Below, piece by piece: positions 1,850 to 53,490 of a stretch of DNA of 64,000 nucleotides (within the stretch, counting starts at the first letter, position 1; each line of letters begins with the position of its first letter). This stretch comes from Eledone cirrhosa. Lineage: Eukaryota. A model generated the notes under the pieces. It did not search any database. It saw nothing but the letters and a program-made list of their open reading frames with translations, and was not told where the DNA came from. The stretch covers positions 1,116,001 to 1,180,000 of the forward strand of contig OZ024762.1 of assembly GCA_964016885.1 (NCBI GenBank). Direction: 5' to 3'. The position numbers and the translations under genes are program-made.

Positions 1850-2267
1850 TGAGGGTGGCGTCGTAACTTTCTATCTTTCTACCTCTCCCTGTCATCTCGA
1901 AAACACACGGCATTCCCTTTTCTCTCTCTCTTTCTCTCTCTTTCCCTCTCTCTATATATATAAAGTGAGCGTGACGGACGAACAGACAGACAGACAGACA
2001 GTGCTCTTATTATAATACAGAAGATTAAGTTCATACACACACACGCACACATACACACACACGCGCGCGCACACACACACATACACGCGCGCACACACAC
2101 GCACATATATTATCATGTATTTTAGGAAATATGGTAAAAAAGGCTCCCAGTTCACACTGTAATAGTGGTTGGTGTTAGGAATGGCCTCCAGCTGTAGAAG
2201 ACCTGCCATACAGTTCTGTACAAGTGAGACACGGTCATCTGATCAATCTTGCCACAAGTGGAACATA

Positions 2268-8130: not shown

Positions 8131-8199
8131 TATATTCACATTACACACACAAATACCGTAAATATACCACACACATATATATATATATATATTGTGTTT

Positions 8200-8237
<38 letters not shown>

Positions 8238-8562
8238 CATCTGCTGTCAGCACACCTAGCGGCCCCACACACTTAATCAGGTTAACATTGCATATTTATG
8301 TTAATAGAATCTGAGCATACACGATGCAGCAGTCGTCGTGATATATATACATATATATATATAGAAATATATGTATATATATATACATGAACGATGTGCA
8401 ATTTACGCATATAAACGACAGCACCATCGTCTTCAGCATCAGCCGTTTTATCAACGACACTATTAGCACCACACCCACCACACACATTACACACCGGATC
8501 CACCACCACCATCTCTACTGCTGCGTCTAGATATAGTCAATCAATCAGAAGGCACTTCCCTC

Positions 8563-8576
8563 GTTGCTAAGGAAAC
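8563..8576. promoter_or_regulatory. RFX X-box-like site in a candidate promoter for the HHCC variable exon
   Basis: GTTGCTAAGGAAAC matches the X-box pattern GTYNCY-N(0-3)-RGNAAC, in a locally GC-richer unique stretch. Confidence 0.35.
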
Positions 8577-9543
8577 TGGCCCGGGCCTCTGTATGCTGTA
8601 AGAGCGAACAGCCTACATTTCATGAATTTCACCAGCTGTGAACTTTATCACATTCAACCTACTTACTCTATATTTGTCGTATGTAATGATCGTATTTCAC
8701 AATATAGAAGCTAGCCAAGCTAACCAAGGAACTAAACAAACTCTGGATAACTTAAATATCTGAGAAAATAACGGAAGAAAACTAGAAGAAAGAAAGTATC
8801 TGCTTAAACAAAATATTTTTAATAATAACAGACTTTCACCATTGTATTTCACGCACATATTTCCACCTCGTATATAATATTTTCTGGCATTTTAACTTCC
8901 ATTATATTTAATGGAGACGAAATATTTTCCTCCCTTATTTTATTTCATCTTATGGAATTAAGACTGTTTGTGATTTTTAGTGAAAAATCATGACTTATTC
9001 CCTGAAAACCATACATTTTCTACATGTGATTCATATATTACATGGCTGAGTATTGATTTAAAGCAAGCATATTCTTTTTAAAAGCTTATCCACTCATCGA
9101 TCCTTCTCTTCATTTTCTCCAAACGTATGTGTGAAGATTTAATGCTTACATTACATAAACTACACAGGAATATACCATATATATTATCAAATATTATAAA
9201 TTGGTCAGAGAAAAAGACAAAACCACACAAATGTTGCCTTATTGCAGTGAATTTCACGATCTTGGATATTATACAGCATTTTTAGTCACCTCGTATAATT
9301 CATATTTTCTATTTACCCCAAATAGATAAAACTTCATTTCCCGCCTTACTCGTATATATATATACACTTTCAAATCTAAACCATCTCATGTAAAATATAT
9401 CTTTATTTACTAATATATATTTGTTTACTTTTGAAATTATTGATGTCATTCTTGTATAGCAAATTATATATATGTCTATATATATATGTATAGTTCGATA
9501 TATTTGGATTACGATTTAATTATCCGTGTATACATACATATAG

Positions 9544-10202: not shown

Positions 10203-10796
10203 ATGATGATGATGGCCGAAGAAGAATTTCTGAGAACATGGAGAGTGAAGAAAAAAGAGAAGATTGGTAAAAACGTTGTAAGCATGACCAAGGAACAATA
10301 CAACAAGTATTTGCTTATTCTGAAGGGAGCTTGGGAGAAAAAAACCGCTTGGACAGGGGAAGAATATAATGTCACTCGTCGTTTTGATTTGGTCGCTAAT
10401 GACCAAGGGACGAAGCTGATTAAGAAACGAAGACTGAGGGACTCGGACACAACTATTCGTCCTTATATTGCCGACGAGGATCTATTCCGTGCTTTGAAAG
10501 CTGTCCATTTGACCCATTCCCATGCTGGTATCAACCGTATGCAGAACATAACCCGTCAGTTGTATGCTAATGTGACGGCAGAGGCTATTAAAATCTATAT
10601 TTCTTTGTGTCCGAGGTGTAGCAGTCGTAGACATGGAAACTACAAGATCCATCCTGGTAGGAGCAGCTTCAATAAATGTTCGGTTAAATCGGTCAACACT
10701 TTACCGGTCAGACGAAACGACGAGAAATGCCAGACACAATCGGATTTGTTTATGCTGGGATTATTAAAAAATGAGGAAGATTTGGTGATGAACAAT
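10203..10796 (+). CDS. Variable exon A1: integrase-type HHCC zinc-binding domain (KRBA2/SCAND3/NOL4-like, Ginger/retroelement-integrase derived)
   Basis: Motif HLTHSHAGINRMQNITRQLYANVTAEAIKIYISLCPRC (H-x4-H...C-x2-C), preceded by MTKEQYNKYL and IADEDLFRALKAVH. No DDE core follows. Ends at phase-0 donor AAT|gtaagt (10796/10797). Confidence 0.8.
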
Positions 10797-10854
10797 GTAA
10801 GTTTATACGTATTTGTCTCCCTTGGACTGTCTTGTTTCTTATCGCTGACTCTTA

Positions 10855-11135
10855 AGCGTGGCTTAGTAGTAAGGGTGTTGGACTTCGACTATAATATCGT
10901 GGGTTCGATTCCTGGGCTGGGTCGTGTTGTGTTCTTCAGCAAAACACTTCATTTCATGTTGCTCCAGTATAATCAGTTGTAAAGGAGTACCAGCTGTAAT
11001 ATATGGGGATTTAACCCTGTGATGGACTGGCGTCCTGTCTAGGGGGAAGTCTTGTGCTCTCAGTTGCTTCACATCACGGAAACTTGGGTACGTACCGGCC
11101 TGGTGAGCTTCTGGCTTCGAGACAGACTTTAGACT
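10855..11135 (+). mobile_element. tRNA-derived SINE (related copies at about 20500-20780, 32115-32440, 57250-57480 minus, 61830-61990 minus)
   Basis: A box TGGCTTAGTAGT, B box GGTTCGATTCC, followed by a conserved body gtgttgtgttctt..gcaa.acact..atttca.gttgctccag. Confidence 0.8.
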
Positions 11136-11378
11136 TTATATATATAATCGGGGGAAACCACAGCAAGGTACTCAATACATTAGTAGAGTGTAAACATAAT
11201 GTTTAATATAGAAATGGCTTCTACAGGACTAGAACTGTTTCAAAAAAAATCATCAGAAAAGATTTCCTGATGATTTCTTTTGAATATATATATGTGCGTG
11301 TGAGTAATTGTTTACTAATGTAAAAATATATATATGATTAAAATCGATCTTCTATTTGGTATATATATCTCTTTGTAG

Positions 11379-11435
11379 CTTGAAACCCTTGTGAAAGTGG
11401 AACACACAGAAACTTCTGGTCTAACTGAACATCAG
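11379..11435 (+). CDS. Variable exon A2: 57-nt in-frame micro-exon (LETLVKVEHTETSGLTEHQ)
   Basis: ctttgtag| acceptor and CAG|gtaaac donor; phase 0/0, open, and containing a VKVE SUMO-consensus motif. Confidence 0.7.
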
Positions 11436-11914
11436 GTAAACATCTTCGCTCACTTATTCCTTCAAACACTCCCTCTAGTGGGTCCTGTCAGAAGCAATCA
11501 ACTCCAACTGATCCGGCTAGATCCCTCAAGTGTGACCAGCCAAGGCTCATGGATGTTATCCATCCATCTTGTTCGGGGTCTACCCCTGGGTCTCCTACCT
11601 GTTGATTTCGCCTGTAAAATCTATTTTGGTTTTTAATTCATCTTTTTTTAACTAAAAATTTATTTAACGTTTGTTTGTGAGGTGGGAGTAATAATTAGTT
11701 TTAAAAAACTCCACAATAATAATGGTAAATTTGTACGGGTTTTGTGGGAGGAGGTTATCAAAATTTCATTTCATTTTCAACGTATGATGGGTGTAAATTG
11801 TAAAAGTTGCTGCTGTTATAGTTAGTATATAAAAACACGTGTATTCGTTGAGGAGTGATTAACATGTTTGGTAAAACTGGAGAATCGCGGCGGCACAGTT
11901 AAAATTATATAGGG

Positions 11915-12230
11915 AAATAATAATTGTTTGTACTTTCGGCACAAGGCCAGCAATTATCTCAGTGTATTACTGGTTCTTTATCGACCCTTAAGGATGAAAG
12001 GCAAAGTTAACCTCGGCAGGATTTGAACTCAGAATAATAATGATTTCTAGTATAGGCACAAGGCCAGTTATTTGGGGGAAGGGGAAAGTCGATAAAATCG
12101 ACTCCAGTGTATTATTGGTACTTTATTTTGTCGACGCTAACCGGCGGAATTTGAACTCAGACTGTAAAGAGCCGTAACTCTATGCTGCAAAGCATGTTAT
12201 CCGACGCTCTACCGATTATATTGCCAATCC
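11915..12230 (-). mobile_element. Second tRNA-derived SINE family (gagttcaaat.ccgccgagg.taactttgcctttcatcc...gtcgataaaataaagtaccag); many copies, e.g. 28690-29190, 48510-48690, 54655-54840, 62030-62400
   Basis: Repeated dispersed sequence with B-box GAGTTCAAATCC and an (ATT)n tail. Confidence 0.75.
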
Positions 12231-12259
12231 GTCCTAAATATCGTAAATATTGACTTTTC

Positions 12260-12552
12260 TGAATTACCGGAACATAAATTTAGTTTTTACTCCGCTCACA
12301 TTTCCTATTTTTATTGTTTTAAACTTCCTCGTGTGACAGAACATATATGGAGAGCCGGCGGTACCTTTATGGCAAACCCCTCCCATCCTTAGGGCGCATT
12401 TCTATAATTAAATTAAATATATTGAATATATAACAATTTCCTCAGCGATGAATAATCACTAAATATTTTTTCCGTGTAGCAGCGTTATGGAAATATCCAA
12501 AGTGGTGGAGAGGGTTGTATGGTGTTATGACCTGTTACATGATTTGGCGTGG
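12260..12552 (+). promoter_or_regulatory. Candidate promoter and non-coding first exon for the FLYWCH variable exon
   Basis: ETS-like ACCGGAAC at 12266, unique sequence, strong donor GG|gtgagt at 12552/12553, and an acceptor ttatag| at 13256, 13 nt before the FLYWCH ATG. The start coordinate is approximate. Confidence 0.4.
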
Positions 12553-13269
12553 GTGAGTGTGTATCGTGTTGTGGAAAATGCAGGCTCAGTAAATATTCTT
12601 AGTGTGGTCAAGAAACTAGATTTGTCAGTTTGACAAACTTTAAGTTGAAATAACTTACATAGAAATCGAATTGTGATCAAAGCATAGGAAATAAGAAAAA
12701 AAAAGCTATAAAACTTAAGTTTCGTTCCGTTTTGTTCAATCTAAGTTTTATGATCTAGTTACAAATTAATACAACTGTACTATTTGTTGTGGTTATATAA
12801 CTTAAGGTTAAAAATCAGCGTGTTAAAGTATTAATAAATTTATACTGGCCATTTGTATTTGTTGTTTAAGAGATAGAAAATTAAATTTTATAGTTTGTAA
12901 TGTATCGGGCTGAATTTAGTTGGTAAAAATAGATTCTTTCTCTCCCAATGTGAATGTTTTAAAAGATTGTCGTTTCGCCTGTCGTGTTTCGCCTTGTCCT
13001 AATTTTGCCTTAATTCGCCTTCAACTTTCCTATTTATTGAGTACCTGTCTGATACACCGGTTTTAAACATACAAAACAGAGCTATACATAGCTATATATC
13101 TGTATATAGTTATAAATATATCACATCTATTTATATATATATATAATTATCTATCTATATAATATATATATATATATATAATATATCTATATATATATAT
13201 ACATACACACAGTCGGTTTATCTAGAGTTCAGTAGAAGTATTTGTATTTGTTATAGGGCAATTGTTACT

Positions 13270-13845
13270 ATGGCGAACGATCCGTTTCTTAATAATGTTG
13301 ACGATGATTTTAAACTAAATAAAAAAAGCCAGGCATTGAAACCGAACCAACCCGAGTATGAACTGATATTAACGACTAGAGGCGGCCAACTTTTGGCCTT
13401 AAATGGTTATTTATTTCGACTTAACTATAAACGTAAAGACAGAATTTACTGGAAATGCAGAACGTTGGGTTGTCTCTCGAGTGCGATTATGTCTAGCGAA
13501 AAAAAACTAATTTCGTTTAGGGAAAACCACAACCACAACAACGATAGGTCTTCGATACGTAACAGGTCGACTTATAGAACTTCAAAGCGAATATCATCAT
13601 CTAGGCCGACGAAACGAGCACCTAAGATCTCAACGGTTGAAGGGTTTCTCTCAAAATTTCCACAGGGTGACCCACAAAATATTCATGCTATCCTACCGTC
13701 GGAACATACCATCAAGACAGAGATTTTCGCAGCTGGTATAAACTGTGCTTATGAATCTCTGGCCTCGTCTTATTTATCTGGAATTCCCTGGGATGCAGCA
13801 GCACCCCAACAAATTGCGACCATAACTGATATCAAGTTTGGCAAG
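13270..13845 (+). CDS. Variable exon B: FLYWCH-type zinc finger (Mutator/MULE-related)
   Basis: TTRGGQLLALNGYLFRLNYKRKDRIYWKCRTLGCLSSAIMSSEKKLISFRENHNH has the L/Y-F/W-x-C/C/H-x-H pattern. Ends at phase-0 donor AAG|gtatgt (13845/13846). Confidence 0.85.
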
Positions 13846-14719
13846 GTATGTCTAAACCATTTATCAGAAAGAGGGGCCCCACTCCCCTTTATGGTGGTAC
13901 CATTGTTGTTGTCTCATGTTTTTGTTTTTTGTAAATATTTTAATGTTTCACTTGTAGAATTCGGTGCTTTGCAGGTGAAAGTTGTTTTTTTTTAAATCGC
14001 CAAAGATTGTTTTTATTCAAATGAGAAAGTTTTTGTTAACTAATGATACACGGATTTGACATCCTTAAATAATTTATATATATATATATATATATAAAAG
14101 ATCTATATTTTAACTTCGATTAATTTCCTATTTCAAAACAGTTCGATGTCTGTACCTTTCAACATTATAACTTGCAGAAGATTTCACATTAATGTTAACA
14201 CGAATGTAGAAAATATGGGATTTTCGTGTAAGGTGTGTGTATTGTTTTATAAAGTACCAGTAATACACTGGAGTCAATTTAATTGACTTTCCCCTACACA
14301 AAAAATTGTTGGCTTTGTGCCTAAATCAGAAACAATTATTATTATTATTATTATATTTTCATTGTTAAATTAGTCTTGCCATTGTGCACTTTTACTCGAC
14401 CTTATTGTAAACCCCCACTGTCCCTGTCTTTGTATTGTCCCCTACATGTCGGCCCTTGTGGCTAATAAATGAAATCATTATTATTATTATTATTATTTCT
14501 GAGACTGTGGGGTTAAGGAGTAACCACGTGTTCAGTCCCACTGAGTGGCACCTTGGGCAAGTTCCTTTCATTTATAGCTTTGGGTGAACGGATCAAACAA
14601 CTGCTGAAAAGGGTAAACAAAAAAACATCCAGAAATAAACAAACCTCTATGTGGTTGATTGACCTGCTAAAAATAGCTGCCAAATGTTTATATTTACCTA
14701 AAAAAAAAAAACCTTCCAT

Positions 14720-15197
14720 CATAATTTTATTTAAGGATCTATGTTAAGTTATGTTCCAAACAGCAGTCTAAAAATGAGAAAGTTAATTATATTTACTAAA
14801 TCCTTCCAAATTCTTGATTATTTTTCAAAATTATTCAAAAATTTTAAGAAAGTCTTTCATTAGAAATATGGTAACGAAAGGGTTAGTGTTTATATTTAAA
14901 ATCATGGTTTTATATAAGAACTTTTCTTAAGTTATGTTCCAAACTACTAAATCCTTTCAAATTCTTCCTCTATTTTCAAAAATTATTTGGAAATTTTAAA
15001 GCAGTTTTTCATTAAGAATATGGTAAAGAAAATTTATATTTATTTAAAAAGCACCATTAAATTATGTTCCAAACACCAACTAAAAACGAGAAAGTTAATT
15101 ATATTTAATAAATCCTTCCAAAATTCTTGATTATTTCCAAAATTATTTGAAAATTATAAAAAGTCTCTCATTAGAAATATGGTAACGAAAGGTTAAA
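14720..15197. repeat. About three diverged tandem copies of an AT-rich dispersed repeat
   Basis: ttatgttccaaac...aaatccttccaaattcttg...aatatggtaacgaaagg recurs three times. Confidence 0.6.
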
Positions 15198-16251
15198 CCT
15201 GAGAAAGTTAAGGAGAACGATAAAAAACCAGCCCAGCATTTAAAGGTGTGTGGCATTGCTATAAAGTTATAAGGTTTCTACCAAGGTGGCCGTTTATATA
15301 TAGTAACTGCTGTTCTATTAAGAAACAGTAGACGGCATTATAGAGCAATTTAAAGGCCGAGAGAGAAATATACATGTGTGTGTCTGTTTAGCTATCTAGT
15401 GTCCGTGTGTCCGTCTCCTTTTTATATATTTTCTCTCTAAATAGATGTGTACTAGCGGAATGGCCCGGCGTTGCTCGGGATTCTAAACATAGATTGGCAT
15501 GTTTATTCCTCTTTTCTGAAACATTACAGAGAAGTACGGAATACTTCGGCCTGGGGATGGTGTCTACATTTTGTGCTTACAAAAAAAATTTGTTGTAGAT
15601 TACCAGGGGTTTAACTTAATTGGGTGCCTGAGAGTAAAATGTTCAACCCACGAAAGCCAAGATGATAGGGTTAAGTAAAAAGGCATTCGACAAACCGAAC
15701 ATGTATTTGTTGTGCTATGGTACAATGAAAGCAATAGTTACAGAGCAGTAAGCATGTCGGACTGCAGTGGTGGAGAGCATGAAGGAATTTAGTTGGATAC
15801 TTTTAAGGTTACAGGCCCTAATGCAACCAAAATGCTAAACAATGCGGTTCCCGGGCAAAAATTTGAAATCCTTTTCAGTCAAGAAAATTTGTGAAACATA
15901 AGTAATCCATATGCAAAGTTTTTAAAAAATCGGTTGGGTACTTCTCGAGTTACAGGCCCTAATGCAACCAAAATGCTTAAAAAAAATTGGCTTTTCGCCT
16001 AATATATGGTTTCGATCATACTGTGAACACACTGAGTTCTAACTACAATATAGACCCTACTGCGAAAGGTAAACCACATTGAATATATATATATATATAT
16101 ACATATATATATACATACATATAGGAAAAAGTATGACCCCTTTTTCCTATTTCCAACTCTACTACCCTAAGTATTGAGTACTCTGGTGTGTTATGGTCCA
16201 TCTGGTTCCTTACCACAATTCCTTTGTTATACATATATATATATATATGTA

Positions 16252-16292
<41 letters not shown>

Positions 16293-16381
16293 TACGGTTC
16301 TGTTCAAATCATTTATTCGCTTACAATTGTTTCTTCCAAACCAAGGTTTGGAGTCTTCGGAGCAATTTTTTCAATGATTAT

Positions 16382-16880
16382 TTACATACATGACCTCCTT
16401 TTCAACACAAGAGACATACAGAAACATATGTATATATTGATGCACAGTGGGTTGACATCCATTATAATATTTAAGCATGGCAGTTTACATTCAAAGATTA
16501 AAGTCATATTAAAATGGCTGCGACTGTGGCTCCCGAGACCAGTTTTGCTCAAGTACATCTTTCCACACTCAGGGCACACCAATTCAATGGAGACGCTGAG
16601 CATTTCGAGAGATACACCGGGGCATTGCTTACACACATCCCGTTTGATCTTCTCGTGCTTTATGCATCTGTTCTCAAAATTATGGACCCCATCATTCACC
16701 ATTCCCCGCCAAGTTTCTCTTTCAAGAGCTTCTATCTCCCACTCAGTCATCATCAAACCACTTTTTTTTACACAATCCTTGAATCGGAGCCTTGGCTTGT
16801 GAGGTGGTCCCTTACCCTCACAAAGTCCGCCATACAAAAGTTGTTTTGGGAGTCGATCATCCTCCATTCTGCAGAGGTGT
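16382..16880 (-). mobile_element. 3' fragment of an RTE-clade LINE ORF with C-terminal C2H2 finger
   Basis: RMEDDRLPKQLLYG...GPPHKPRLRFKDCVKK...WE..A..R..WR...CPECGKMYLSKTGLGSHSRSH. Confidence 0.8.
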
Positions 16881-16914
16881 CCGGTTCAACACCCTTGGTG
16901 GATGATACTCTCAA

Positions 16915-16944
<30 letters not shown>

Positions 16945-16945
<1 letters not shown>

Positions 16946-18283
16946 CATCATCATCATCATCATCATCAGGTTTAGCGTCCGTGTTCCACGTTTGCATGGG
17001 TTTGGACGGGGGTAGTCCCACTTGAGGCAAGAGTGATTGTCTTGCTCGCATAGGACTGTCTGGCGGGTTTTCTACAGCTGGATGCCCTTCCTAACACCAA
17101 CCACATTTACAGTGTGGGGCTGGGAGGTTTTTACCGTGTTGCCTACACGGCCACATTACAGCGTGGACTGTGTGTTTTTTGTCGTGACACCTACACGATC
17201 TCATTTGTTTCGGCCTGGATGTTGTGGGACCAACATAACTTTACATAGAAGGGGGCGGTGTGGATGGGGTGGAGGTGGTGGGACGGGGGTGTGTTTTGAT
17301 AGAGATGCCTACTGACTGTAGTAGGTTTTTACTTTGTATTTAGGTAAGGCGGGTCTTCTCTATTACTGAGTACCGCCAAAGGTCTCGGTCCAGTGACATT
17401 GTCTTGGAGAGGTGTAAGCGTGTGAGGTCGGAATTTATCAGCTCGTCCCATGTTTTTCTGGGTCTGCCTACTCCGTGGCTACCGTCTATCTTTATTGCCC
17501 TGCACTTTGTTATACAGCTGTCGTCTTTCATGCGCATCACGTGACCCTACCAACGTAGCCTTCTCTCGAGTAAACAACATCTGATCCCTCTTATTTCTAA
17601 TTTTTTTTTTCCTTAGTTCGTTTATGCTTTGCCGTTCACGTATATTACTATTGCACATCCAGCGGAGCATGCAAGCTTCGTTCCTCTCTAGTCTGCGTAT
17701 ATCCTCTGCACACAATGCCCAGGTCTCACTGCCATGCAGCATTGCTGTTCGTATGCAGGCATCGTATAACCTGCCTTTCATTTTTAGGGAGAACCCTCTA
17801 GCAGCTAATAGTGGTATAAGCTCTCTGAACTTTTTCCATCCAGTTCTGACTCTAGCTACTGTACTTTCAGAGCACCCTCCCCCACTGCTGATTTTGTCAC
17901 CCAGATAACGGAAGCTGTCCACTATTTCTATAGAACCCTCTGCGCAGTTGAAGGAGCTAGTATTTTGTGGGCACTTGCTGCTACTTATTGCACCAGAGCA
18001 CCGGCCACATGTAAAATCTATGTTCTTAGTTAGCTTACCTGTGATCCCACTACATCTTTTATGCACCCATACTTTGCATTTGGGACATAAAATGGAGTTT
18101 CTACCTACGCCTTTCCTACACATTGAGCATGGCCATTTCCCAGATGGGACCGCCGCCTTATTTTCTTTCCTACAAACTAGAACCTTAGTCTTAGCCAGGT
18201 TAATTTTAAGGCCTTTTGATTCTAGGCCGTGCTTCCATGTTTGGAATTTCTTTTCTAGTTCGGTCATTGATTCAGCTATGAGC
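16945..18283 (-). mobile_element. 5'-truncated RTE-like LINE (RT C-terminus with Cys-rich insert, 3' UTR and (ATG)n tail)
   Basis: [12 protein letters not shown]...[31 protein letters not shown]...[11 protein letters not shown]...KGRLYDACIRTAMLHGSETW. Frameshift at the poly-T near 17600, then GRPRKTWDE. (CAT)n at 16945-16968. Confidence 0.9.
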
Positions 18284-18342
18284 TATATATATATATATAT
18301 ACACATATATATATATATATATACACATATATATATATATAT

Positions 18343-18381
<39 letters not shown>

Positions 18382-18388
18382 TATATAT

Positions 18389-18460
<72 letters not shown>

Positions 18461-18520
18461 GTATATATATAGATATAAATATACATTTAACATGGAAGAT
18501 AGACGTTAAACGATGATGAC

Positions 18521-18593
<73 letters not shown>

Positions 18594-18889
18594 AAAGAAA
18601 AGAGTCATGACCCCGACGGCTGAGCTCCGCCTGTTTCAACAGCCAGATCCGAACTATATAATATATATATATATATATATCAATGAAAAATTCGAGGCCA
18701 TATTGATTTGGTTCAGGTTTATTTAAAATCTGTTATATATTTCCCTAGTCGTTGAGCTCTTTCTCTTAACTACTTCACAACCGACAGACCATTATATAGT
18801 CCACACATCCTTATTTAGTTAACCTCTTACTATAAATATAGTAATAGTAATAAATGTGAAGACTAAAATCCGAAGAGAGCTCAATAAGG

Positions 18890-18931
<42 letters not shown>

Positions 18932-19010
18932 TATAAAAACTGTAGACCAAATATTTAAAATAACAGATTAAAGTTTAAGCAAAGAATCGCTGCTTTCACC
19001 CTTAATGGGA

Positions 19011-19049
<39 letters not shown>

Positions 19050-19087
19050 TTGCAAAGATTTTGATAGAAATCATGTGTTGAAACAAA

Positions 19088-19287
19088 TATTGTTATATCT
19101 GGGCGGTCACAATGTTATAATATTGCCAGAAATATATAATAAAACACACTCTGATTGGCAGCTAAATTAACTAGAGGGATATAAAATATACAGGAGTGAA
19201 AACCGACCCAAACCAAACAGTGACTGTGTTTTATTATATATTTCTGGTAATATTATAACAATATGACCCTCCCCAAATATAACAATA
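19088..19287. mobile_element. Palindromic MITE-like element
   Basis: Arms tattgttatat...ccagaaatatataataaaacac and gtgttttattatatatttctgg...atataacaata are reverse complements. Confidence 0.6.
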
Positions 19288-19572
19288 GATATATATGTAT
19301 GTAAAAGGTGTAACTATATATATATATATAATGGAGGTGAGGTAAGGAACCAGATGGACCATAACGCACCAGAGTACTCAATACTTAGGGTAGTAGAGTG
19401 GGTAATAGGAAAATGTTTGACCCCCGACAGCAGAGCTCAAGCCATTTCGACGGCTATTTCAGTCCAGAAATGGCCTAAGCTCTGCTGTCGGGGTCAAACA
19501 TTTTCCTATATATAAATATATATATACCAAGATAATAATAAATGATGGAAACTATATTTATAAAACCATATT

Positions 19573-19637
19573 TATTTTATTATATATATTTCAAGGGCGA
19601 CCAAGCAAAACTTGGTGCGCTTTCATCAGATAAAATA
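19573..19637 (-). ncRNA. Minimal type I hammerhead ribozyme motif (degenerate paralogue at 5503-5559, minus)
   Basis: Minus strand TATTTTAT-CTGATGA-AAGCGCACCAAG/TTTTG/CTTGGTCGCCCTT-GAAA-TATATA-TA-ATAAAATA, with an 8-bp perfect stem I. Confidence 0.7.
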
Positions 19638-19943
19638 CAAAATTTGTTTAATAAACAATGACATACACATGGAAATCACACCTTAACGGTCTGAAGATTC
19701 GCTTCCCTGGCTTACTCACTTTGTTCGCTTGTCCTGCATCTCATACACATTGAGGACACTGTCCCCCTCACTACTGGCTTAGAATTCTCAGAACTAATCA
19801 CATATTTCTCCTCTACGATTAGTTAATATACATACTTTTTGATATAATATATCTATATATATATATATATATATTTATTTATTTAGGTCTCTGATTTTCA
19901 GCCCCATGGATTTTGTCTATTATATTTCTTTGTTATATTTCGA

Positions 19944-20001
19944 ATACCTGATGATGTCACCGGATTCATACTGTACCCGGTCACTGAAATGATCATAGTA
20001 T
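19944..20001 (+). ncRNA. Minimal hammerhead ribozyme motif, probably impaired
   Basis: ATAC-CTGATGA-TGTcACCGG...CCGGTcACT-GAAA-TGATCA-TA-GTAT; the base of stem II is a U-U mismatch. Confidence 0.55.
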
Positions 20002-20045
20002 AACAAACCTTTTAAGGAATTACACCAGTCCAGCCTCCTGTTATT

Positions 20046-20083
<38 letters not shown>

Positions 20084-20360
20084 GATAGATAGAGAGAGAG
20101 AGAGAGAGAGATGTTTACATATCTCTCTACCTACTCTGAGTTCTCTCAACATTAGTGGTTTCCCTCGTCTCAGTATCACAGATATTCTATATATATAATA
20201 TATTATAATATATGTTGTTCTGAGCCACTTTCACATTTGCCAACTAACCAATGGTGTAAGACTAACCTTAAAAAAAAAAAGTAGGCCACTGTAGTTATAA
20301 ATTAATCAGTTTTTTTAATCTAATACACTCATTATTTAACATAGATATTTTATTTTCTTG

Positions 20361-20391
<31 letters not shown>

Positions 20392-22961
20392 AACAAATAA
20401 GAGTTTCTTTAGTCCATCCCGTTATTGAACAAAAAAAATATATATATATTTACACATATACGTATATATATATAAATTTACGTATGTTATATGTGAAGCC
20501 ACATGGCCTGATCGTTAGGATGGTTGCCGTACGATCGTAATGTCGTCGGTTCAATTCCTGGGCAGGCTGCTGTGTTGTGTTCTCGAGCCAAACACTTTAT
20601 TTCACGATGCTTCAGTACACTCAGCTGTGAGTGAGTACCAGCTGTAGCTGGGGAGTTAACCCTGCGATAGACCGGCGTCCTGTCCAGGGAGAGTATTGTT
20701 GTACTCTCAGTCGCTTAACGCCATGGAAACCGGGATAAGCACCGGCCTGATGAGCCTTCGGCTTGGAAGACTTTAACTTTTTCATATACATAATAATACT
20801 TCATGTTTGAGTGCATATATATGACTTTAAATCCTTAAAATAGACAGTTGTGTCAAAGGCATGACAACCTCTCCTGTTCATTCAGTGGAGTATCGAGCGT
20901 ACATGAAACCAGATGCCTGGCCTGCTTGGGAGATCAGTACTGACTTGGTCTATGTAAACCTCTCCAATCCTTGCTAGCAGATGTTAAAACGACAACGATG
21001 ATGATGATGATGATGAAAGACCTGCGTTCTAACCCTACACTTAAGTAAATAGTTATTTCTCCTAAATTGCTGATACATTTAATCCTTTTATGTAATTTTG
21101 TTGCTGCAGATAGTCACTACTTCTCCGAATTGAGAGATCACAGCTCTGATACTATGGACATGTGGTGAGAATGTCTCTGGGGAGAATCGCTGGACAGATT
21201 TTATGTGAAAAACCAACCGGCAGTAAACTCAGGGGTAGACCCTGAGCAAGATGGTTGGATAACATCCATCAGCTTGGCTGGTCATGCTTGGGGATGCAGG
21301 CAGATCCGTTGGAGACAGTTGCTTCTGACACGACCCACTAGAAGGAATAAATGGGCAAAAAAGATGTATGTGTATGTATATATATATAGATATATAGGAA
21401 CAAGTAGGACCCCGATGGCTGAGCTCAAGCCGTTTCGACAGCTAATTCTGGACTCAGCCGTCGGGGATCCTACTTGTTCCTATTACCCACTCTACTACCC
21501 TAAGTATTGAGTACTTTGGTGCATTATGGTCCATCTGGTTCCTTACCACTTTTCCTTCGTTATATATATATATATATAAAAGGAATAAACTGTAGTGTGC
21601 GGGAGAGAAGACTGCGTTGGTATGGACATGTGATGTGCATGAAAGATGTCAGCTGGGTGAAGAAGTGCCAAGAAATCCCGGTGGAAGGAAGACATAGTAG
21701 AGGAAGACCATGAAAAACATGGGCGGAGGTGATGAGAGCAGACCTCAGATCGCTGAGGCTCACAGAGGAGATGACGAAGGACCGTGACAAATGGAGAGAT
21801 GCTGTGCTGAATAGGACCCGTCCCACCCTTGCAAGCAGGGAAAAACGGACGTAAAATGATGATGATGGACTGGCGTCCTATCCAGGGGAAGTCTTGTACT
21901 TTCAGTCACTTCATGCCCCGGCCTGATGAGCTTCAGGGCTTGAGTCAGACTTTAAACTTGTAGATATATATGTGTGTAGTTTCTGTATACATTTGTGATC
22001 CTGTCTCTATTTTTGTACTCCTGAAGAAGGGCTGTAGCCTGACATGTCGCACTTTCTTTCCCCTTTAAAGTGTGAAACTAAGACTTTTTGTACCTCTGTT
22101 TCTTGTTTCCTTGAACTATATATATGTATATATATATATCCAGTCCAGCGTCCTGTTATTTTATAATAATTAACTCCGTACTCGCACCACCAACTACACT
22201 AACGAAGACGAGTGAGTTGCATTACGTTGAGTGCTCTCCATAATATTACATCCAGGTTGACCATACTGAGTGACCAGTTCTATCCAGTGGTCAACCAACA
22301 AACCTAAATATATATAGTTCTGTAGGAGCAAGATGCTCACCTGATCTAACACTGCCCATAACAGAACAACTCATCTACCTCTGCTAGATCAGAGCTCTTT
22401 TCCTATTTCCCACTCTACTACCCTAAGTATTGAGTACTCTGGTGCGTTATGGTCCACCTGCTTCCTTACCATACTTTCTTTGTTATATATATATATATAT
22501 ATGTGTGTGTGTCTGTGTCTGTATTTGTTGCGTGTGTGCCTATTTGTGCTGTCTATATGATCGTCAGTAAGCATCCCTGTATACCTGTGTGTTGGTTAGT
22601 CTCTAGTCTATACCATATATACAACATTTGAATTGGGATGCCCTCAGATGAGATTTTCGTTTTGTCTGACCAGGGCTGGAGATGGGTCTATAACATTAAT
22701 ATGGACTCGGAGCCAGCCATCCGTGAAACATGTGTAACTCAGTTTAATCAATGACAACCTTAATGTGAAACCTCATTTTGTTCTTAATATATATCTAATA
22801 TGTATGCATACATGTGTGCGTATATATATATATACGCATACATACATATATGTAAATATATACATGTGTGTGTATATATATACACTCACTCACATACACA
22901 TAAATATATAACATACACACACATATGCACATATGTATATATATATATGTATATATATATG

Positions 22962-22997
<36 letters not shown>

Positions 22998-23181
22998 TGT
23001 ATATATGTATGTATGGATATATGTATGGATGTATGGATATATATATATATATGTATATATATGTATTTGTATATATATGTAAATGATGATGTATATATAT
23101 ATGTATACATATATATATATATATAAATGAAAAGTATAGAAATTATTGTAGCAAGAAGCCAACAGTATTCCATAATATATA

Positions 23182-23740
23182 ACACACTATGTAAGCATTA
23201 TGGTGGACCGAGTCGTTAGAACGTCTCATAGAATGTTTTGTGTTCTTTACTCTGCTCTCTGAGTTCAAATCCTGCCGAGGTCAACTTTACCTTTCATCCT
23301 TTCGACGTCGATAAAAAAAGTGACAGTCTAGTACTGTGGTTGATTCTCTCTCTCCATCATCATCATAGTTTAACGTCCATCCTCCACGCTAGCATGGGTT
23401 TAGACGGGAATTGTCCCACTTGAGGCAAGCGTGGTTGTCCTGCTCGTATAGGACTGTCTGGCAGGTTTTCTACAGTTGGATGCCCTTCCTAACACCAACC
23501 ACGTTTACAGTGTGGGGCTGGGAGGTTTTTACCGTGTTGCCTACACGGCCACATTACAGCCTGGACTGTGTGTTTTTTTGTCGTGACACCTACACGACCT
23601 CATTTGTTTCGGACTGGATGTTGTGGTACCAACATAACTTCACACTGAAGGGGGTGGTGTGGATGGGGTGGGGGTAGTGGGACGGGGGTGTATTTTTGTT
23701 AGAGGTGCCTACTGACTGTAGGTTATATATATATCTCTCT

Positions 23741-23784
<44 letters not shown>

Positions 23785-23957
23785 AGAGAGAGAATCAACC
23801 ACAGTACTAGACTGTCACTTTTTTTTATCGACGTCGAAAGGATGAAAGGTAAAGTTGACCTCGGCAGGATTTGAACTCAGAGAGCAGAGTAAAGAACACA
23901 AAACATTCTATGAGACGTTCTAACGACTCTGTCCACCATAATGCTTACATAGTGTGT
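23182..23957. repeat. Near-perfect 176-bp inverted duplication of a SINE flanking an inserted LINE 3' UTR fragment
   Basis: 23182-23357 is the reverse complement of 23781-23957 (one mismatch seen). The loop resembles 16950-17325. Confidence 0.9.
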
Positions 23958-24601
23958 GTGTGTGCATAATTTCTCTGTCCCCCCTCTCTCTCTATATATA
24001 TGTGTGTGTGTATTTATATATATATATATATAAATACACATACAGGATGTCCCCCAAAAATATATACACACTTCCATAACCTTCTAATCAAAGTGTGTAT
24101 ATATTTTTGGGGACACCCTGTGTGTGTGTATATATATATATATATATTTATATGCATATATATAATTATATGCATATATATATATATATTAAACATAATA
24201 CGTACATGCACACACGCATTCTTTTATTGCTTACAGTCATTAGCCCGTGATCATGATGGGGCACCGTCTTTAAGGCATTCATTTAATCTCTCATATCGAA
24301 CCTGGATAATAAAATAATAATTTATAGTAATTTATAAAATATATATTTTTTAAAAAATCATCAATGAAATATATCGTTTAATTTTGTAGATATTGCTATT
24401 TGTATGAAAAAACAACAACAATCTAGGCTACAGTTAGTAGTTAAAGTTGTAGGCCTATATAAGATATAGAACAGCAGTAGCACCTAGAAAACATAGTTAT
24501 TTTCTTTTAAGAAGGAACTAATTCACCCCCTATCTTTCTCCACCCTTCTCTATGTCGACTAAACTAAAACTAAAACGACTTATGTTGCTATCTGAAGTTG
24601 G

Positions 24602-24936
24602 GCCGCCATTGGCGGAATGATCTTATTTATTTTATTTTTTTGTGTGAGTGAAGCGGTCAACCACATATATGGCTATAGTGATGTGTATGATAGACTGAGA
24701 GAGATAGTGGGAGCGGATGCTATCGACTATTAATTTTACTTCTATGGCTTTCATTAACAAACTCTAACTTGTCTGTTGCCAGAAATAAATCTCTATTTAA
24801 AAATTTGTAAACGGTGGGGAAAAAATCGTTGCAACTTGTCTAAAAAGCTGTAATATTTTGTTCGGCTTCTATAGTGTAGGGGCACTATGTCTTCTCGTAG
24901 TACTGTTCACTACGCATCTATGTTGCCGTGACGTCA
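24602..24936 (+). promoter_or_regulatory. Candidate promoter/5' region of the DUF3504 variable exon
   Basis: YY1-like GCCGCCATT at 24602 and a palindromic CRE TGACGTCA at 24929-24936, 40 nt before the ATG. In-frame stops lie upstream of the ORF. Confidence 0.45.
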
Positions 24937-24975
24937 CGCTACTAGAGCGTAGTGCCGTGCGGAAGAAGGTTACTA

Positions 24976-26286
24976 ATGGCTTCCAATCCACTAGATTCGT
25001 CGTCACCGACTCCTCCGCCGTGCACTTCTACTGCAAACTCTCTGCTTGCTAGCACTAACATTCCTCTACAATCGGCTGGAATTCTCCACGAAGATGTCCC
25101 CATATTGGTCATGCCCCCTCCATCGAAAGAACACCAGCAATATGACAGCAAGAAAACGAAAGAGGCCACCAAATATAGCGCGAAAATCTTCCGTGATTTC
25201 TGTCATAGCCGTGGCATCAATACTGCCATTGAAGATATGACCAAGAGTGACTTGGACGAACTGCTCTCTGACTTTTACATCAATGTCCGTACACAAGGCG
25301 GTCAGTTTTATAGTTTTTCATCGCTAGTTGCGCTTCGTCATGGATTAAACCGTTACCTGAAAACTGTGAACATCGTCAACGACCCGGCATTTCGTAAATC
25401 AAACATGTCTTTTAAAGTAGCTTTGAAACGGCTGAAGGAAGCTGGGAAAGGGTCGATCGAACACAAAGAGCCGATCAGTCAGACTGACATGGCTACGCTG
25501 TACTCACATAGTCAGGTTTTTAACCCTAACACACCGGAAGGCCTTCTAAATAAGGTCTGGTTCGAGATAACATTTTATTTCTTTCGTCGGGGACAGGAGA
25601 ACCAACGTTACCTCACCCCACACCATTTTGGTTTTGGCACAGACGAATACGGTCGAAAATATGTTTACAAACGGAAATCGTTGTCTCAGTTCACTAACGG
25701 GTGTAACATTGATTCGAACAGCTCCTCTTTGTCTCCAGACTCCAGTCGAAGTGCGAGGATGTATGCCACTGGAAATGCCGTGTGTCCAGTAGCCACATTC
25801 GAGCGATACCTTCGTAAGAGAAACCCACACGAGTTAGCTCTATTCCAGCATCCTCGGACCACATCTTTCCAGGACTCCATCTGGTATAATGCATCTCCCC
25901 TGGGGAAAGAAGCTTTGTCTACTATGATGAAAAGAATAGCACTGACGGCGAAACTCTCTCGTGTTTATACAAACCACTGCATCCGTGCTACTGCCAAGTT
26001 CGTCCTGTTTCAGGTGTTCGATGCATTTCAGTTCGATCCACAACAAGGCACCAGCAGTTCTCTAACCACACCATCTCAATCGATGGCTTTGCCAGGTATC
26101 AGTTCGATATCTGGTCTAAACACCCTCTCGTCCCACGATATACAACAGGCCGCCCACGATACAAATGTGACCCCGTTAAGTTACAACCCTCATCCGTCTG
26201 GCCTCCGTGTCTCTATGGTACAGTCCGAAAGTGACAATACATTCGCCCACCTGCCTAATTTAAGTGAAATAGCTCTAAACAGACAG
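24976..26286 (+). CDS. Variable exon C: Crypton-derived DUF3504 / tyrosine-recombinase-like domain (KCTD1/ZMYM/QRICH1/KIAA1958-like), catalytically incomplete
   Basis: LDELLSDFYINVRTQGGQFYSFSSLVALRHGLNRYL...TPEGLLNKVWF...FFRRGQENQRYL...CPVATFERYLRKR...WYNASPLGKEALSTMMK...YTNHCIRATA, then an S/T/P-rich linker. Phase-0 donor CAG|gtaagt (26286/26287). Confidence 0.88.
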
Positions 26287-31295: not shown

Positions 31296-31444
31296 GAGGC
31301 AATGGAAGTTCAGTCAGCCGTCGCTGCAGCTACCAGTAATATCATGGGCCAAGCAGCTGAAGTTGAGACTTATGAACCAGAGCCAGTTCATACCATCCAG
31401 AATCCCAAGATTAGAATAAACCAGGATAAAGATTTGTCTGTCAG
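31296..31444 (+). CDS. BTB module, constant exon 1 (EAMEVQSAVAAATSNIMG...DKDLSV)
   Basis: Acceptor ttttctcaaag|GAG is phase 0 (the NAGNAG alternative at 31299 is also phase 0). In-frame ATG at 31302. Phase-2 donor AG|gtaaga. Confidence 0.8.
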
Positions 31445-32530
31445 GTAAGAATGTTATCTATATGCCATATCAGATGGCCGTGTTTTACTCATATAGAAAA
31501 GTTTCTAGCTTGGTTTCTATGGCTGCATGCCCTTCCTGATGCTAACCACATTTATAGTGAGTACTGGGTGCTTTTTGTCATGTCACAAACACAAACCCTT
31601 TACAGTGTGGACTGGGAGCTTTTTATCATGTCACCAAACGACTATAATATATATCATATGTCCACTTATTCCTGAGAGGGTCAGTTCTCTAGCGCCCTTT
31701 TCAGTGGGTCCTGTCAGAAGCAACCATTTCCAACTGATCTGGCTGGATCCCCAACCGAGATCAACTGAGCTCATGGAGGTTATCCAACTATCTTGCTCTG
31801 GGTCTCCTGCCAGTTGATTTTGCCCATAAAATCTGTCCAGCAATTCTTTCTTGAGACATTCTAACCACATGTCCATAGTATCGGAGCTGTGATTTCTTAA
31901 TTCAGAGAAGTAGCAGCTCTACCAGGAGTGACTCTCTCATCTCTGAGCTAAGCATTCAATCGATTAATGTTAGTCCAAAGACCCTTCAGAGAATCACATT
32001 TCAGCCCCTTGTATTTACAATCGTATTCTTTCGGTCATTACCCAAGTTTCATGACCATAGGGAAGGGTTGGCACAAATACCATATTGAAGATATGTGCAT
32101 TATGTTGTTAAGACGCATGGCTTAGTGGTTACAGAGTTAAGCTTACAATTGTGAGGTTGTGAGTTTGATTCTCGGACCGGGCTTTCCGTTGTCGTCTTGG
32201 GCAAGACACTCTATTTCACGTTGCTCCAGTTCACTCAGCTGTAGTGTTACAATGTCACTGGTGCCAAGCTGTATCGGCCATTGCCTCTCCCTTGGACAAC
32301 ATCGGTGGCGTGGAGAGGGGGAGACTGGTATGCCTGGGTGACTGCTGGTCTTCCACAAACAACCTTGCCTGAACTTGGGCTTCGGAGAGGAAGGTTCTAG
32401 GTCCAAATCCCTAGGTTATTTGTGACTGAAGGGGGTCTTTTGTGTATAAATATTTGTGTGTGTCTGTGTGTCTTTCATTGGATTTCTAGAGTTTTATTTA
32501 TTACTAATTGATATTTATTTTCATTAACAG

Positions 32531-32681
32531 TTTCTCTGCATCATCGCGGCCTGCAACTGTCTTCAAAAAAACCTATGTTGACCCCGAACATGCAGATGGT
32601 ATGATGAAGTCACTGGCAAGTTTATGGAGGAAGAGACGGCTGTGTGATGCTAAGATTTGTAGTGGAAACAAGAATGTCACT
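32531..32681 (+). CDS. BTB module, constant exon 2 (start of BTB/POZ: HADGMMKSLASLWRKRRLCDAKICSG)
   Basis: ttaacag|T phase-2 acceptor matches the previous donor; phase-0 donor ACT|gtaagg. Confidence 0.88.
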
Positions 32682-33036
32682 GTAAGGATTGAGATTTTAC
32701 AAGTTTTACTTTTAAATTTATTGTTAAATTACAGCCTCTTACAAGTTTTAGTGATTACATACTGGCCATGCTGGAGCACCACACTCTCTGTCAATAGACT
32801 GAGGCCATGTTGGGGCACCACACTCTCTTACTGGTTTCAGTCATTAGACTCTGGCCATGCTGGAGCACCACGCTCTCTTACTGGTTTCAGTCATTAGACT
32901 CTGACCATGCTGGGGCACTATTTTCAATCATTGTTCTATAGCCAGGTAATATTTCTGGCAATTTTCTCTCAATTTATTTCCCAGAACAATTATTTACAAT
33001 ATTTCTAATGTTTTCTTCTATAAATTTCCATTTCAG

Positions 33037-33981
33037 TTACATCGTTTGGTTCTGTTTGCTGCTAGTCCTCACTTGATGGAGAAGAACATCACTGATGGAG
33101 CTGACTTGGAGGTGAATCTTCCACCAGGGATTAGTGAAGATGGACTGAAAATATTTGTCAGCTTTCTCTACGACGGGGTCCTCAATCTTAACGAGCACCT
33201 CTACAAGGATGTCGAACGAATATCGAATCTTTTAAAAGTCGATAAAATTCAGAAACATTGTCGTGAGTTTGCTGCCAGTTTTAACGAACACAAACAAATG
33301 ACGAGCTCCTCTACGACGCTGACACCACGCCGACGAGATTCCCTTCCCAAGTCACACAAACAAAACAATCGGCAAACGGTCGTTCTGACGTTGAGCGACG
33401 ATTCCAATCCTGCAGACATTAGCTTCGACAGCCATGAACAGGACGTGGGCTTGTCCCATTCTCAACTGGAAGAAGTTCATAATTCTCTGCTCGACGAAAG
33501 ACTCCAAACATTGAATGAACAGCACAACTATTTAACTTCTCACCAAAATCAGTTCCCTTCCACTTCACAAGCCTCTTCGATGTCTCTGCAGAGCGGCAGT
33601 GGCTCAGTGAACGCCATTTCTTCTGAATGTGGTATCAAAACTGAACCGATAGAGATCTTAGACGACGACATCGCTGATTACAACTTAGCTCAGGAGGACA
33701 TTAAACAGTGTAAGCCTTCTATGAATCAGAGTAGCGGCAAAAGTTACTGCGAGGACAGTTCCAACTCTGAAGCTCATAGACGTTCATCACAAGGACATAT
33801 CTCAAGTAAACTCTCACGAACTTACATGACACCTAGTAAATGTGAATCAGGCATAGAGTTATCCCAAATAGAAAGTATATCGACTTGTGCCGGCACTGGC
33901 GCGTCCCCTTATCCTGTCAGTTTAGTAGCTTCTTCCGGAGAGACGTTCCCTCTATATACTTTATCATCCAACCAATCCTGA
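33037..33981 (+). CDS. BTB module, terminal exon (rest of BTB/POZ plus Ser-rich tail; no zinc fingers)
   Basis: tttcag|TTA CAT CGT gives LHRLVLFAASPHL...GLKIFVSFLYDGVLNL...ISNLLKVDKIQKHC. IKTEP SUMO motif; TGA at 33979-33981. Confidence 0.9.
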   Translation, partial: LHRLVLFAASPHLMEKNITDGADLEVNLPPGISEDGLKIFVSFLYDGVLNLNEHLYKDVERISNLLKVDKIQKHCREFAASFNEHKQMTSSSTTLTPRRRDSLPKSHKQNNRQTVVLTLSDDSNPADISFDSHEQDVGLSHSQLEEVHNSLLDERLQTLNEQHNYLTSHQNQFPSTSQASSMSLQSGSGSVNAISSECGIKTEPIEILDDDIADYNLAQEDIKQCKPSMNQSSGKSYCEDSSNSEAHRRSSQGHISSKLSRTYMTPSKCESGIELSQIESISTCAGTGASPYPVSLVASSGETFPLYTLSSNQS

Positions 33982-53114: not shown

Positions 53115-53490
53115 CCATGGAGGAGGTGAGACAGTTTCTGATAAAGTTACCTTGGTGTAGGTGGTGCCAGATGTACAATAACATGTGGAGGTGAGACAGG
53201 TGTACCAAAGTTACCTTGGTGTAGGTGGTGCCAGATGTACAATAACATGTGGAGGAGGTGAGACAGGTGTACCAAAGTTACCTTGGTGTAGGTGGTGCCA
53301 GATGTACAATAACATGTGGAGGAGGTGAGACAGGTGTACCAAAGTTACCTTGGTGTAGGTGGTGCCAGATGTACAATAACATGTGGAGGAGGTGAGACAG
53401 GTGTACCAAAGTTACCTTGGTGTAGGTGGTGCCAGATGTACAATAACATGTGGAGGAGGTGAGACAGGTGTACCAAAGTTACCTTGGTGT
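53115..53490. repeat. 67-bp tandem repeat (about 5.5 copies) in TBC1D25 intron
   Basis: ggaggtgagacaggtgtaccaaagttaccttggtgtaggtggtgccagatgtacaataacatgtgga repeats at a 67-nt spacing (53345, 53412, 53479). Confidence 0.92.

Follow-up and report, generated by a model that had tools for sequence, protein, structure and literature searches.

Several systems have been described in which alternative or unusual DNA-binding modules are attached to a BTB domain or to another regulatory domain. In Drosophila, mod(mdg4) gives rise to at least 31 isoforms that combine a constant BTB domain with mutually exclusive DNA-binding exons, FLYWCH exons among them (PMC4667647). Isoform b of KCTD1 begins with a single-exon, Crypton-derived DUF3504 module that lies 5' of the BTB gene and serves as an alternative N-terminus, and KIAA1958 a and b use two alternative DUF3504 exons (PMC3212892); ZBTB11 carries an integrase-like HHCC motif N-terminal to its BTB domain (PMC5384227, PMC12062965). 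KRAB fusions join the DNA-binding domain of a transposase to a host regulatory domain via alternative splicing; in 8 of 9 cases of vertebrate fusion the transposase was captured downstream via its own acceptor, and BTB is mentioned 0 times in the main text of that study (10.1101/2020.05.07.082677). For Octopus, Mukherjee and Moroz (2023) listed THAP-BTB, CENPB-BTB and FLYWCH-BTB proteins, reading the BTB domain as a transposon component (PMC10027918). Here we describe a BTB gene of the octopus Eledone cirrhosa, located in a stretch of 64,000 nucleotides (C23:1,116,001-1,180,000 of a 3.0 Gb genome) which we call the window; the closest named proteins of the window are from Octopus, Argonauta and Sepia.

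We consider it likely that this is one gene in which three modules of likely transposon origin, exons A, B and C, are alternative first coding exons on a shared BTB body made of exons D, E and F (Table 1). This reading builds on direct observations: the exon anatomy, the common phase, the C-D-E splice, the conservation and single copy, and paralogous loci built in the same way. As the original prediction for this DNA had it, all three frames are intact; A (10203-10796), B (13270-13845) and C (24976-26286) each run from an ATG through to a phase-0 GT donor, and the acceptor of D has the same phase. Its placing of the modules in one gene stands in so far as they are alternative 5' coding exons, not in so far as they were taken to be domains of one protein. 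That the modules splice to one common acceptor 5' of the BTB, as proposed, is borne out at 31296 by the C-D-E contig, while the mini-exon at 11379-11435 and the shared exons at 31296-33981 were absent from that account.

The splice from C to the shared BTB exons is seen directly, as C, D and E are joined in one contig of the same-species run X24. Logan transcripts show the same C-to-BTB junction, as do NCBI proteins of O. sinensis/vulgaris, O. bimaculoides, Argonauta hians and Sepia pharaonis; it is found in 4 of 4 long homologues and in more cluster members from O. bimaculoides and Sepia pharaonis, the fused DUF3504-BTB proteins being P0001-P0005, P0007, P0008 and P0015. Since Octopus, Argonauta and Sepia share this junction, the fusion is older than the split between octopuses and cuttlefish, which dates to about 270 Myr ago. 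For A and B, the joins can be read from the ends of contigs. In three related runs, the contig of D begins 2-3 nt 5' of the acceptor at 31296, as is expected where several upstream paths merge. Contigs were taken to overlap by 30 nt, an assumption based on Logan's 31-letter words. The A contig of run X5 extends 228 nt beyond 10652, which equals 144 nt (the rest of A) plus 57 nt (mini-exon a2) plus 27 nt; the D contig of X5 starts 3 nt before D, so that a 30-nt overlap ends at D+27, matching the 27 nt of the A contig. In run X11 the A contig ends at 144+30. The X11 B contig gives 292 = 264+28, where the 264 nt correspond to the 88-residue tail of the orthologue P0018, and the X11 D contig, starting 2 nt before D, predicts 28, as in the B contig. 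From the conserved donors and this exact arithmetic we infer with good confidence that A and B are also joined to the BTB exons. The predicted products are an HHCC-BTB protein of 631 aa (A+a2+D+E+F), a FLYWCH-BTB protein of 606 aa and a DUF3504-BTB protein of 851 aa; the joining of a head to the BTB is observed here for C and expected for A and B, and mutually exclusive heads on one BTB are annotated for the paralogue LOC106877732.

When the domain calls of the original prediction were checked against Pfam, two of them held and the third fell short: FLYWCH in B (45.1 bits, cut-off 23.6) and DUF3504 in C (43.3 bits, cut-off 29.7) are above threshold, and Integrase_H2C2 in A scores 19.6 bits (E 1e-3), below the cut-off of 25.5. 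The ligands of A, H102-x4-H107-x28-C136-x2-C139 (about 10506-10619), nonetheless fit canonical integrase zinc-binding, as their spacing falls inside HX3-7H(X23-32)CX2C (PMC5384227). In the ESM Atlas, the first 150 residues of A (0.96-0.97) fall with clusters in which 14-33% of members carry Integrase_H2C2. A likeness of A to the N-terminal part of KRBA2/GINGER2 is our presumption; no KRBA2 or GINGER2 sequence was among the matches. KRBA2 and SCAND3 derive from GINGER2, and the defining test is a DDE core that groups with GINGER2 (PMC3575427); exon A has the HHCC motif without such a core, and no rve/DDE domain was found inside or 3' of it. Searched against longer proteins, A found no homologue, and a PDB sequence search gave nothing at E<=5; its single-sequence AlphaFold model, at a predicted local distance difference test (pLDDT) score of 37, was set aside. 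A has one match in the genome, by protein and by DNA, with no paralogue in the protein search; genome copy counts for all three modules are lower bounds. Of its 60-68 differences, 30 are listed, 26 of them at third positions, and 27 of the 29 affected codons are synonymous and 2 non-synonymous. RNA-like contigs of runs X5, X11 and X24 cover this exon.

Exon B likewise has one genome match by protein and by DNA, and is covered by RNA-like contigs. Its C-C-H-H ligands are C63, C68, H87 and H89. In the two orthologues P0018 (64%) and P0019 (58%, across half of the length), homology breaks off at this same donor; the B orthologues found are read-through forms that end in the intron. Other FLYWCH cassettes are present at paralogous loci.

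In the alignment, exon C retains Arg 204/205 of the first catalytic motif and H334-x-x-R337, and the distal His/Tyr end is missing. No segment resembling G-H-S...Y, which we take to be the recombinase motif to compare with, follows HxxR; the nucleophile Tyr is lost. The ten best Foldseek matches to the model of C (pLDDT 63) are all Cre/Tre, with E values of 3e-3 to 9e-3 (none at E<=1e-3) and probabilities of 0.98-1.0, and the likeness to Cre spans both domains. Judged by alignment and predicted fold, C keeps most of the Crypton recombinase catalytic domain, with only the tyrosine end gone. The earlier statement that no catalytic core is left is thus incorrect for C, where the R, HxxR and a Cre-like fold are kept. 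DUF3504 is itself the degenerate recombinase domain, and the human DUF3504 genes keep fewer residues of the tetrad than C does (PMC3212892). As in domesticated Cryptons, C combines DUF3504 and its fold with an incomplete R-H-R-Y tetrad in a single-copy, conserved and expressed exon. It has 8 intact paralogues in the genome at 29-40% identity; together with the single matches of A and B, these counts do not bear out multi-copy neutral insertion. Coleoid homologues share 90-98% identity with the window in the recombinase core, 96-100% in the BTB and 58-86% in the tail. Separately, a DUF3504 cassette at C21:7,741,528 (1528-2709 of the fetched piece) retains R, HxxR and a downstream Tyr-ending segment resembling what we take to be the nucleophile motif; judged by its sequence, it may have moved less far from a catalytically competent state than the paralogous cassettes.

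The shared body D+E+F amounts to 414 residues and comprises a linker, a BTB domain that a phase-0 intron interrupts, and a tail of low complexity. Pfam gave no zinc fingers, BACK or Kelch domain in this frame, which stops at 33981, and orthologues terminate at the same residue. The best solved relatives of the BTB in a PDB sequence search are gigaxonin, BACH1 and BCL6. C2H2 fingers C-terminal to the BTB, which define ZBTB proteins, are lacking.

Single copy, synonymous bias in A and the 90-98% identity of the C core across coleoids support an old domestication, as had been predicted, and not a recent insertion. For the domain classes DUF3504 and FLYWCH, published work has established an origin from transposons; for A, B and C themselves it is likely. 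About 60% of the region from 8 to 34 kb is repeat-derived when compared with 1.39 Mb of other loci, whereas only 0-2% of exons A, a2, B, C, D and E is covered by matches in the same 1.39 Mb. A terminal-repeat search around A, B and C found no inverted repeat pair flanking any module apart from copies of short interspersed elements (SINEs) and microsatellites, in line with the original description of modules devoid of visible terminal inverted repeats or long terminal repeats. The neighbouring long interspersed element (LINE) is, as described there, truncated and frameshifted (near 17605), and is 92-97% identical to other copies. An active transposon was considered and rejected; there are no multiple near-identical copies (the counts being lower bounds), no termini and no intact catalytic core. 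A near-perfect 177-bp inverted repeat (98.9%) at 23182-23957 surrounds a repeat remnant in the intron preceding C; both of its arms lie upstream of C, and C is not bracketed.

Loci with cassette arrays form a much larger family, of which the present locus is one of the small members. There are about 18 paralogous split-BTB genes, 13 in the regions that were fetched and five more returned as loci; the second exons of the split BTB in the fetched regions have the same intron position and phase 0 in 13 of 13 cases. Arrays of ATG-started exons, up to about twenty in number, precede many of these genes on the same strand, and their cassettes belong to the THAP, CENP-B/pogo/Tc5, pipsqueak (psq), FLYWCH, DUF3504, CG-1, Brinker and transposase helix-turn-helix (HTH) families. 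Seven of the eight paralogues of C are located 5' of a split BTB and share its strand, as do 9 of the 18 THAP matches in the genome, with 4 more on the unplaced contig C581. From 103 non-repeat same-strand open reading frames (ORFs) upstream of paralogous BTBs, 67 were chosen by eye for Pfam; 34 of the 67 match a transposase-type DNA-binding family at E<=0.01, compared to 1 of 56 opposite-strand ORFs in the same five regions. Among 38 cassettes, the donor that scores best 3' of the domain is phase 0 in 31; in the largest array the figure is 17 of 18.

RefSeq isoforms confirm cassette splicing at one paralogue, O. bimaculoides LOC106877732. Table S1 of PMC10027918 holds 10 of its RefSeq isoforms and 6 more entries with the same C-terminus, the heads of these entries being CENP-B, THAP, psq or FLYWCH; it also assigns two FLYWCH heads to LOC106879774 and both CENP-B and FLYWCH heads to LOC106877745. 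Donors predicted in the present genome coincide exactly with two O. bimaculoides isoform junctions (codons 59 and 69). In a tree of 13 DUF3504 rows, cephalopod only and poorly resolved, with long branches and no transposon outgroup or active Crypton, cassettes pair across loci: C11b with C4a1 (100/100) and C21 with C4a2 (95/91). Since the nearest relative of such a DUF3504 cassette sits at another BTB locus, duplication supplied part of the repertoire; the repeated capture at this locus that the original prediction had assumed is therefore unproven.

Several paralogous loci show features of their own. C4:234,669,000-234,785,000 holds a very large array before one BTB, with 18 cassettes scored in 234.706-234.781 Mb (THAP, CENP-B, psq, DUF3504 x3 and others). 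The FLYWCH and THAP cassettes of contig C581 match isoforms of O. bimaculoides LOC106877732 in conserved order, and by its sequence this contig is probably a missing piece of the C4:234.7 Mb locus. Midway along that array, at C4:234,758 kb (8172-8366 of the fetched piece), a shared exon starts with His-Phe and appears to give the last THAP zinc ligand in three O. bimaculoides isoforms, so that the domain would be split between a variable and a shared part. At C4:285.92-286.09 Mb, six tandem split-BTB genes are interleaved with FLYWCH, THAP, CENP-B and CG-1 cassettes; a phase-1 best donor in 5 of 9 scored cassettes suggests that phase is locus-specific in this cluster. Inspection by eye of 50 kb at the split-BTB paralogue at C1:146.5 Mb revealed no cassette, and the 100 kb 5' of the window hold no further one.

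Table 1. Exons and other features of the BTB gene region (positions in the window).
Feature	Position	Strand	Basis and remarks
Exon A, alternative first coding exon, 198 codons	10203..10796	+	Integrase-type HHCC; phase-0 donor 10797
Mini-exon a2, 57 nt, phase 0-0, likely A-to-D link	11379..11435	+	Acceptor and donor; non-repetitive; join inferred from lengths
Exon B, alternative first coding exon	13257..13845	+	Acceptor 13257; ATG 13270; FLYWCH at residues 34-89; phase-0 donor 13846
LINE remnant in intron, outside the gene	17343..18282	-	Young, truncated, frameshifted
Promoter-like unique DNA 5' of exon C	24602..24966	+	Motif scan, consensus matches only
Exon C, alternative first coding exon, 437 codons	24976..26286	+	DUF3504, Crypton-type tyrosine-recombinase fold; phase-0 donor 26287
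Shared exon D, common phase-0 acceptor	31296..31444	+	X24 contig C-D-E; contig starts in three related runs
Shared exon E, N-terminal third of BTB	32531..32681	+	Same-species contig; frame; BTB match
Shared last coding exon F, remaining BTB and low-complexity tail	33037..33981	+	Stop 33979-33981; no zinc fingers, BACK or Kelch

The motifs upstream of C are, as we presume from their consensus, YY1-like (24602), CRE (24929) and an ETS-like core (24960). Unique DNA at 8416-9346, of which 8537-8815 is covered by a contig of the related run X11, is a possible promoter or 5' untranslated region (UTR) exon for A and B, and has at 8563 what we take to be an RFX-like box. Elsewhere in the window, the minus strand carries at 44476-46884 a large exon of a gene with a Rab-GAP TBC domain, which converges on the BTB gene, and at 63096-63791 an ORF with WD40 repeats. 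Tandem satellites lie at 2260-3360, 37500-38160, 40380-41280 and 53130-53490; the 60-bp-type unit of the first of these (2.3-3.4 kb) is found again in inverted orientation at 37.5-38.2 kb, and single copies of it lie in other parts of the window.

We suggest that transcription would start at or upstream of one cassette, whose ATG and domain are then read; the donor of this cassette would join the shared acceptor, with downstream cassettes skipped as intron, and the transcripts would differ in the head, predicted to bind DNA or chromatin, that is placed on the common BTB body. The head is presumably chosen by separate promoters or 5' UTR exons. The BTB domains of ZBTB and BACH proteins dimerize and recruit co-repressors. 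By analogy, dimerization of the octopus BTB may pair different heads and recruit co-repressors, and the gene may have a role in transcriptional or chromatin regulation. As to origin, a DNA transposon would have landed 5' of the BTB exons, supplying promoter, ATG and a binding domain at the N-terminus; a donor of matching phase would truncate the transposase before or within its catalytic part and fuse the rest to the BTB, and arrays would grow, shrink and move by duplication along with their BTB. We propose that capture of transposon 5' ends by the shared acceptor could account for both the variety of superfamilies and the shared phase. Going further, we tentatively speculate that BTB genes of this coleoid family are splice traps which have collected the heads of at least six transposon superfamilies (perhaps P/THAP, pogo/CENP-B/psq/Brinker, Mutator/FLYWCH, Crypton, Tc1-type and Ginger-like integrase) into promoter-selected arrays, dimerizing as a combinatorial transcription-factor code and possibly silencing the source elements.

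If only C belonged to the gene, A (with a2) and B being separate small domesticated genes or non-productive upstream transcripts, it would be understandable that no fused A-BTB or B-BTB protein was found, that the B homologues are read-through forms, and that own-species cover of A and B consists of two short contigs. We nevertheless regard this as improbable, given that the phase-0 donors are conserved, that the contig-end arithmetic fits the BTB acceptor, that the unique stretches of 14.1-24.3 kb contain no other conserved coding exon, and that FLYWCH-first BTB isoforms are annotated at paralogous loci. A number of points do weigh against one gene with three heads and its family-wide design. 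Among proteins of 551-2000 aa, exon F found 4 matches, all DUF3504-BTB and none A- or B-headed, and the search with A gave no longer, A-headed fusion protein; the a2-D and B-D junctions are spelled out in no read, contig or protein found. The length arithmetic would also fit a splice to another exon with a like intron end and presumes no net indels in the tail of A, and runs X5, X11 and X24 are only presumed to be RNA. The Integrase_H2C2 call is sub-threshold. At the paralogues, the 67 ORFs were picked by eye out of 103 (a recount gave 85 same-strand ORFs in the five paralogous regions), several of the 34 Pfam matches are under the gathering score or may be plain transposon remnants (Mos1 HTH), and a null of 1/3 for the phase is generous and overstates significance, because a GTAA donor in phase 2 makes a stop. 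The closest BTB paralogue (C2:363,431,139-363,433,800, 67%, same split) has no cassette in about 93 kb upstream. A single long protein with all three modules and the BTB can be joined on paper, all pieces being multiples of three and free of stops. It is very improbable all the same: the phase of B's good acceptor at 13257 does not match a phase-0 donor, the in-phase AGs are poor, C has no pyrimidine-rich acceptor 5' of its ATG, and most orthologous proteins start at that ATG, with a FLYWCH or HHCC head in none. That the modules are recent neutral insertions, as a region 60% repeat-derived might suggest, is hardly conceivable in the face of single copy, synonymous bias, coleoid conservation and the lack of termini.

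Two alternatives accept the exon anatomy and differ in function or history. The BTB could act as a Cullin-3 adaptor or scaffold whose heads bind proteins; the DUF3504 head, for example, might sit on DNA-bound C2H2 fingers as QRICH1 does. Gigaxonin, the best PDB sequence match of the BTB, is a Cul3 adaptor, and C2H2 zinc fingers are abundant in octopus. The QRICH1 structure in question, a Zincore-ZFP91-DNA complex going by its title, ranks 11 in the fold search (E 0.011), and a transposase HTH has been reused as a protein-interaction platform in F-box genes (PMC12062965). We think this unlikely, since no BACK or Kelch domain follows the BTB, nearly all of the repertoire consists of known sequence-specific DNA-binding classes, and the HHCC of ZBTB11 is required for repression (PMC5384227). 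The other alternative concerns origin and is a serious one, to which we give somewhat less than even chances: the locus itself captured nothing, and its three cassettes are the remainder of an ancestral array copied by segmental duplication, or exons moved between paralogues. The pairing of DUF3504 cassettes across loci (100/100; 95/91) and the recurrence of FLYWCH and DUF3504 cassettes at several loci favor it, whereas C has no close sister among its paralogues (at most 39% identity), A has no paralogue, and the supporting tree, itself poorly resolved, lacks rows for an active Crypton or an outgroup.

The reading we prefer, one BTB gene with three alternative heads, is best placed by comparison. 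The PMC10027918 entries belong to the same gene family, and those of Table S1 include orthologues of the C4 and C11 cassettes; in the parts of that paper on which we draw, the entries are counted as separate factors, shared or alternative first exons are not described, and DUF3504 and HHCC heads are not among its six families. A short-motif and accession search of its supplements, covering the first 400 characters per cell, did not find the present gene. Nothing on a 5' cassette design was met in the sections of PMC13465315, PMC12111275 and PMC5753468 that were consulted, and the literature outside subscription papers gave no description of BTB loci with 5' variable cassettes in cephalopods. 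Thus the component fusions have been public since 2023, while the cassette architecture and its scale in cephalopods appear undescribed. Octopus counts of transposon-derived factors are partly isoform counts of a few loci, and gene predictors misjoin or miss cassette exons. The arrays offer a testable model of how a transposon-rich genome gains transcription factors, and single-cell data could be re-read per isoform.

Membership of the gene in mod(mdg4), ZBTB or KCTD was considered and rejected. With KCTD1b it has in common a DUF3504 exon as an alternative start; that gene, however, has a KCTD-type BTB and one head (PMC3212892), as opposed to a ZBTB/BACH/Kelch-type BTB with three heads here and about 20 or more at paralogues, and because the BTB types differ the likeness is probably convergent. 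The predicted isoform A resembles ZBTB11 in architecture, but ZBTB11 has a C2H2 array after its BTB and an HX6H spacing (PMC5384227, PMC12062965), while isoform A has no fingers, an HX4H spacing and an alternative exon. The analogy with KRAB fusions drawn in the original prediction does not hold in its polarity: there the host part is mostly 5' and the transposase 3', with one fusion per gene, while the octopus modules supply start and donor, as in KCTD1b. As in mod(mdg4) and lola, one constant BTB would be combined with alternative exons encoding DNA-binding modules; in the flies, however, the BTB is 5' and the variable exons 3', whereas in the octopus each head has an ATG of its own and precedes a 3' BTB. 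Because of this reversed polarity the octopus gene works like mod(mdg4) without being a member. Its heads come from many transposase classes and not mainly from FLYWCH, the nearest solved relatives of its BTB are gigaxonin, BACH and BCL6, and no trans-splicing is needed, in contrast to mod(mdg4), since all cassettes seen are on the BTB strand. The gene would then be a mirror-image cephalopod counterpart of mod(mdg4), in which two vertebrate fusions (KCTD1b and ZBTB11) are repeated inside one gene, likely by convergence. Should the splice-trap idea prove true, the family would be analogous to mod(mdg4) as well as to the KRAB fusions, but in an invertebrate and with the order inverted. We suggest that it represents a third, likely independent route to one BTB with many DNA-binding domains, taken with 5' cassettes where insects use 3' ones.

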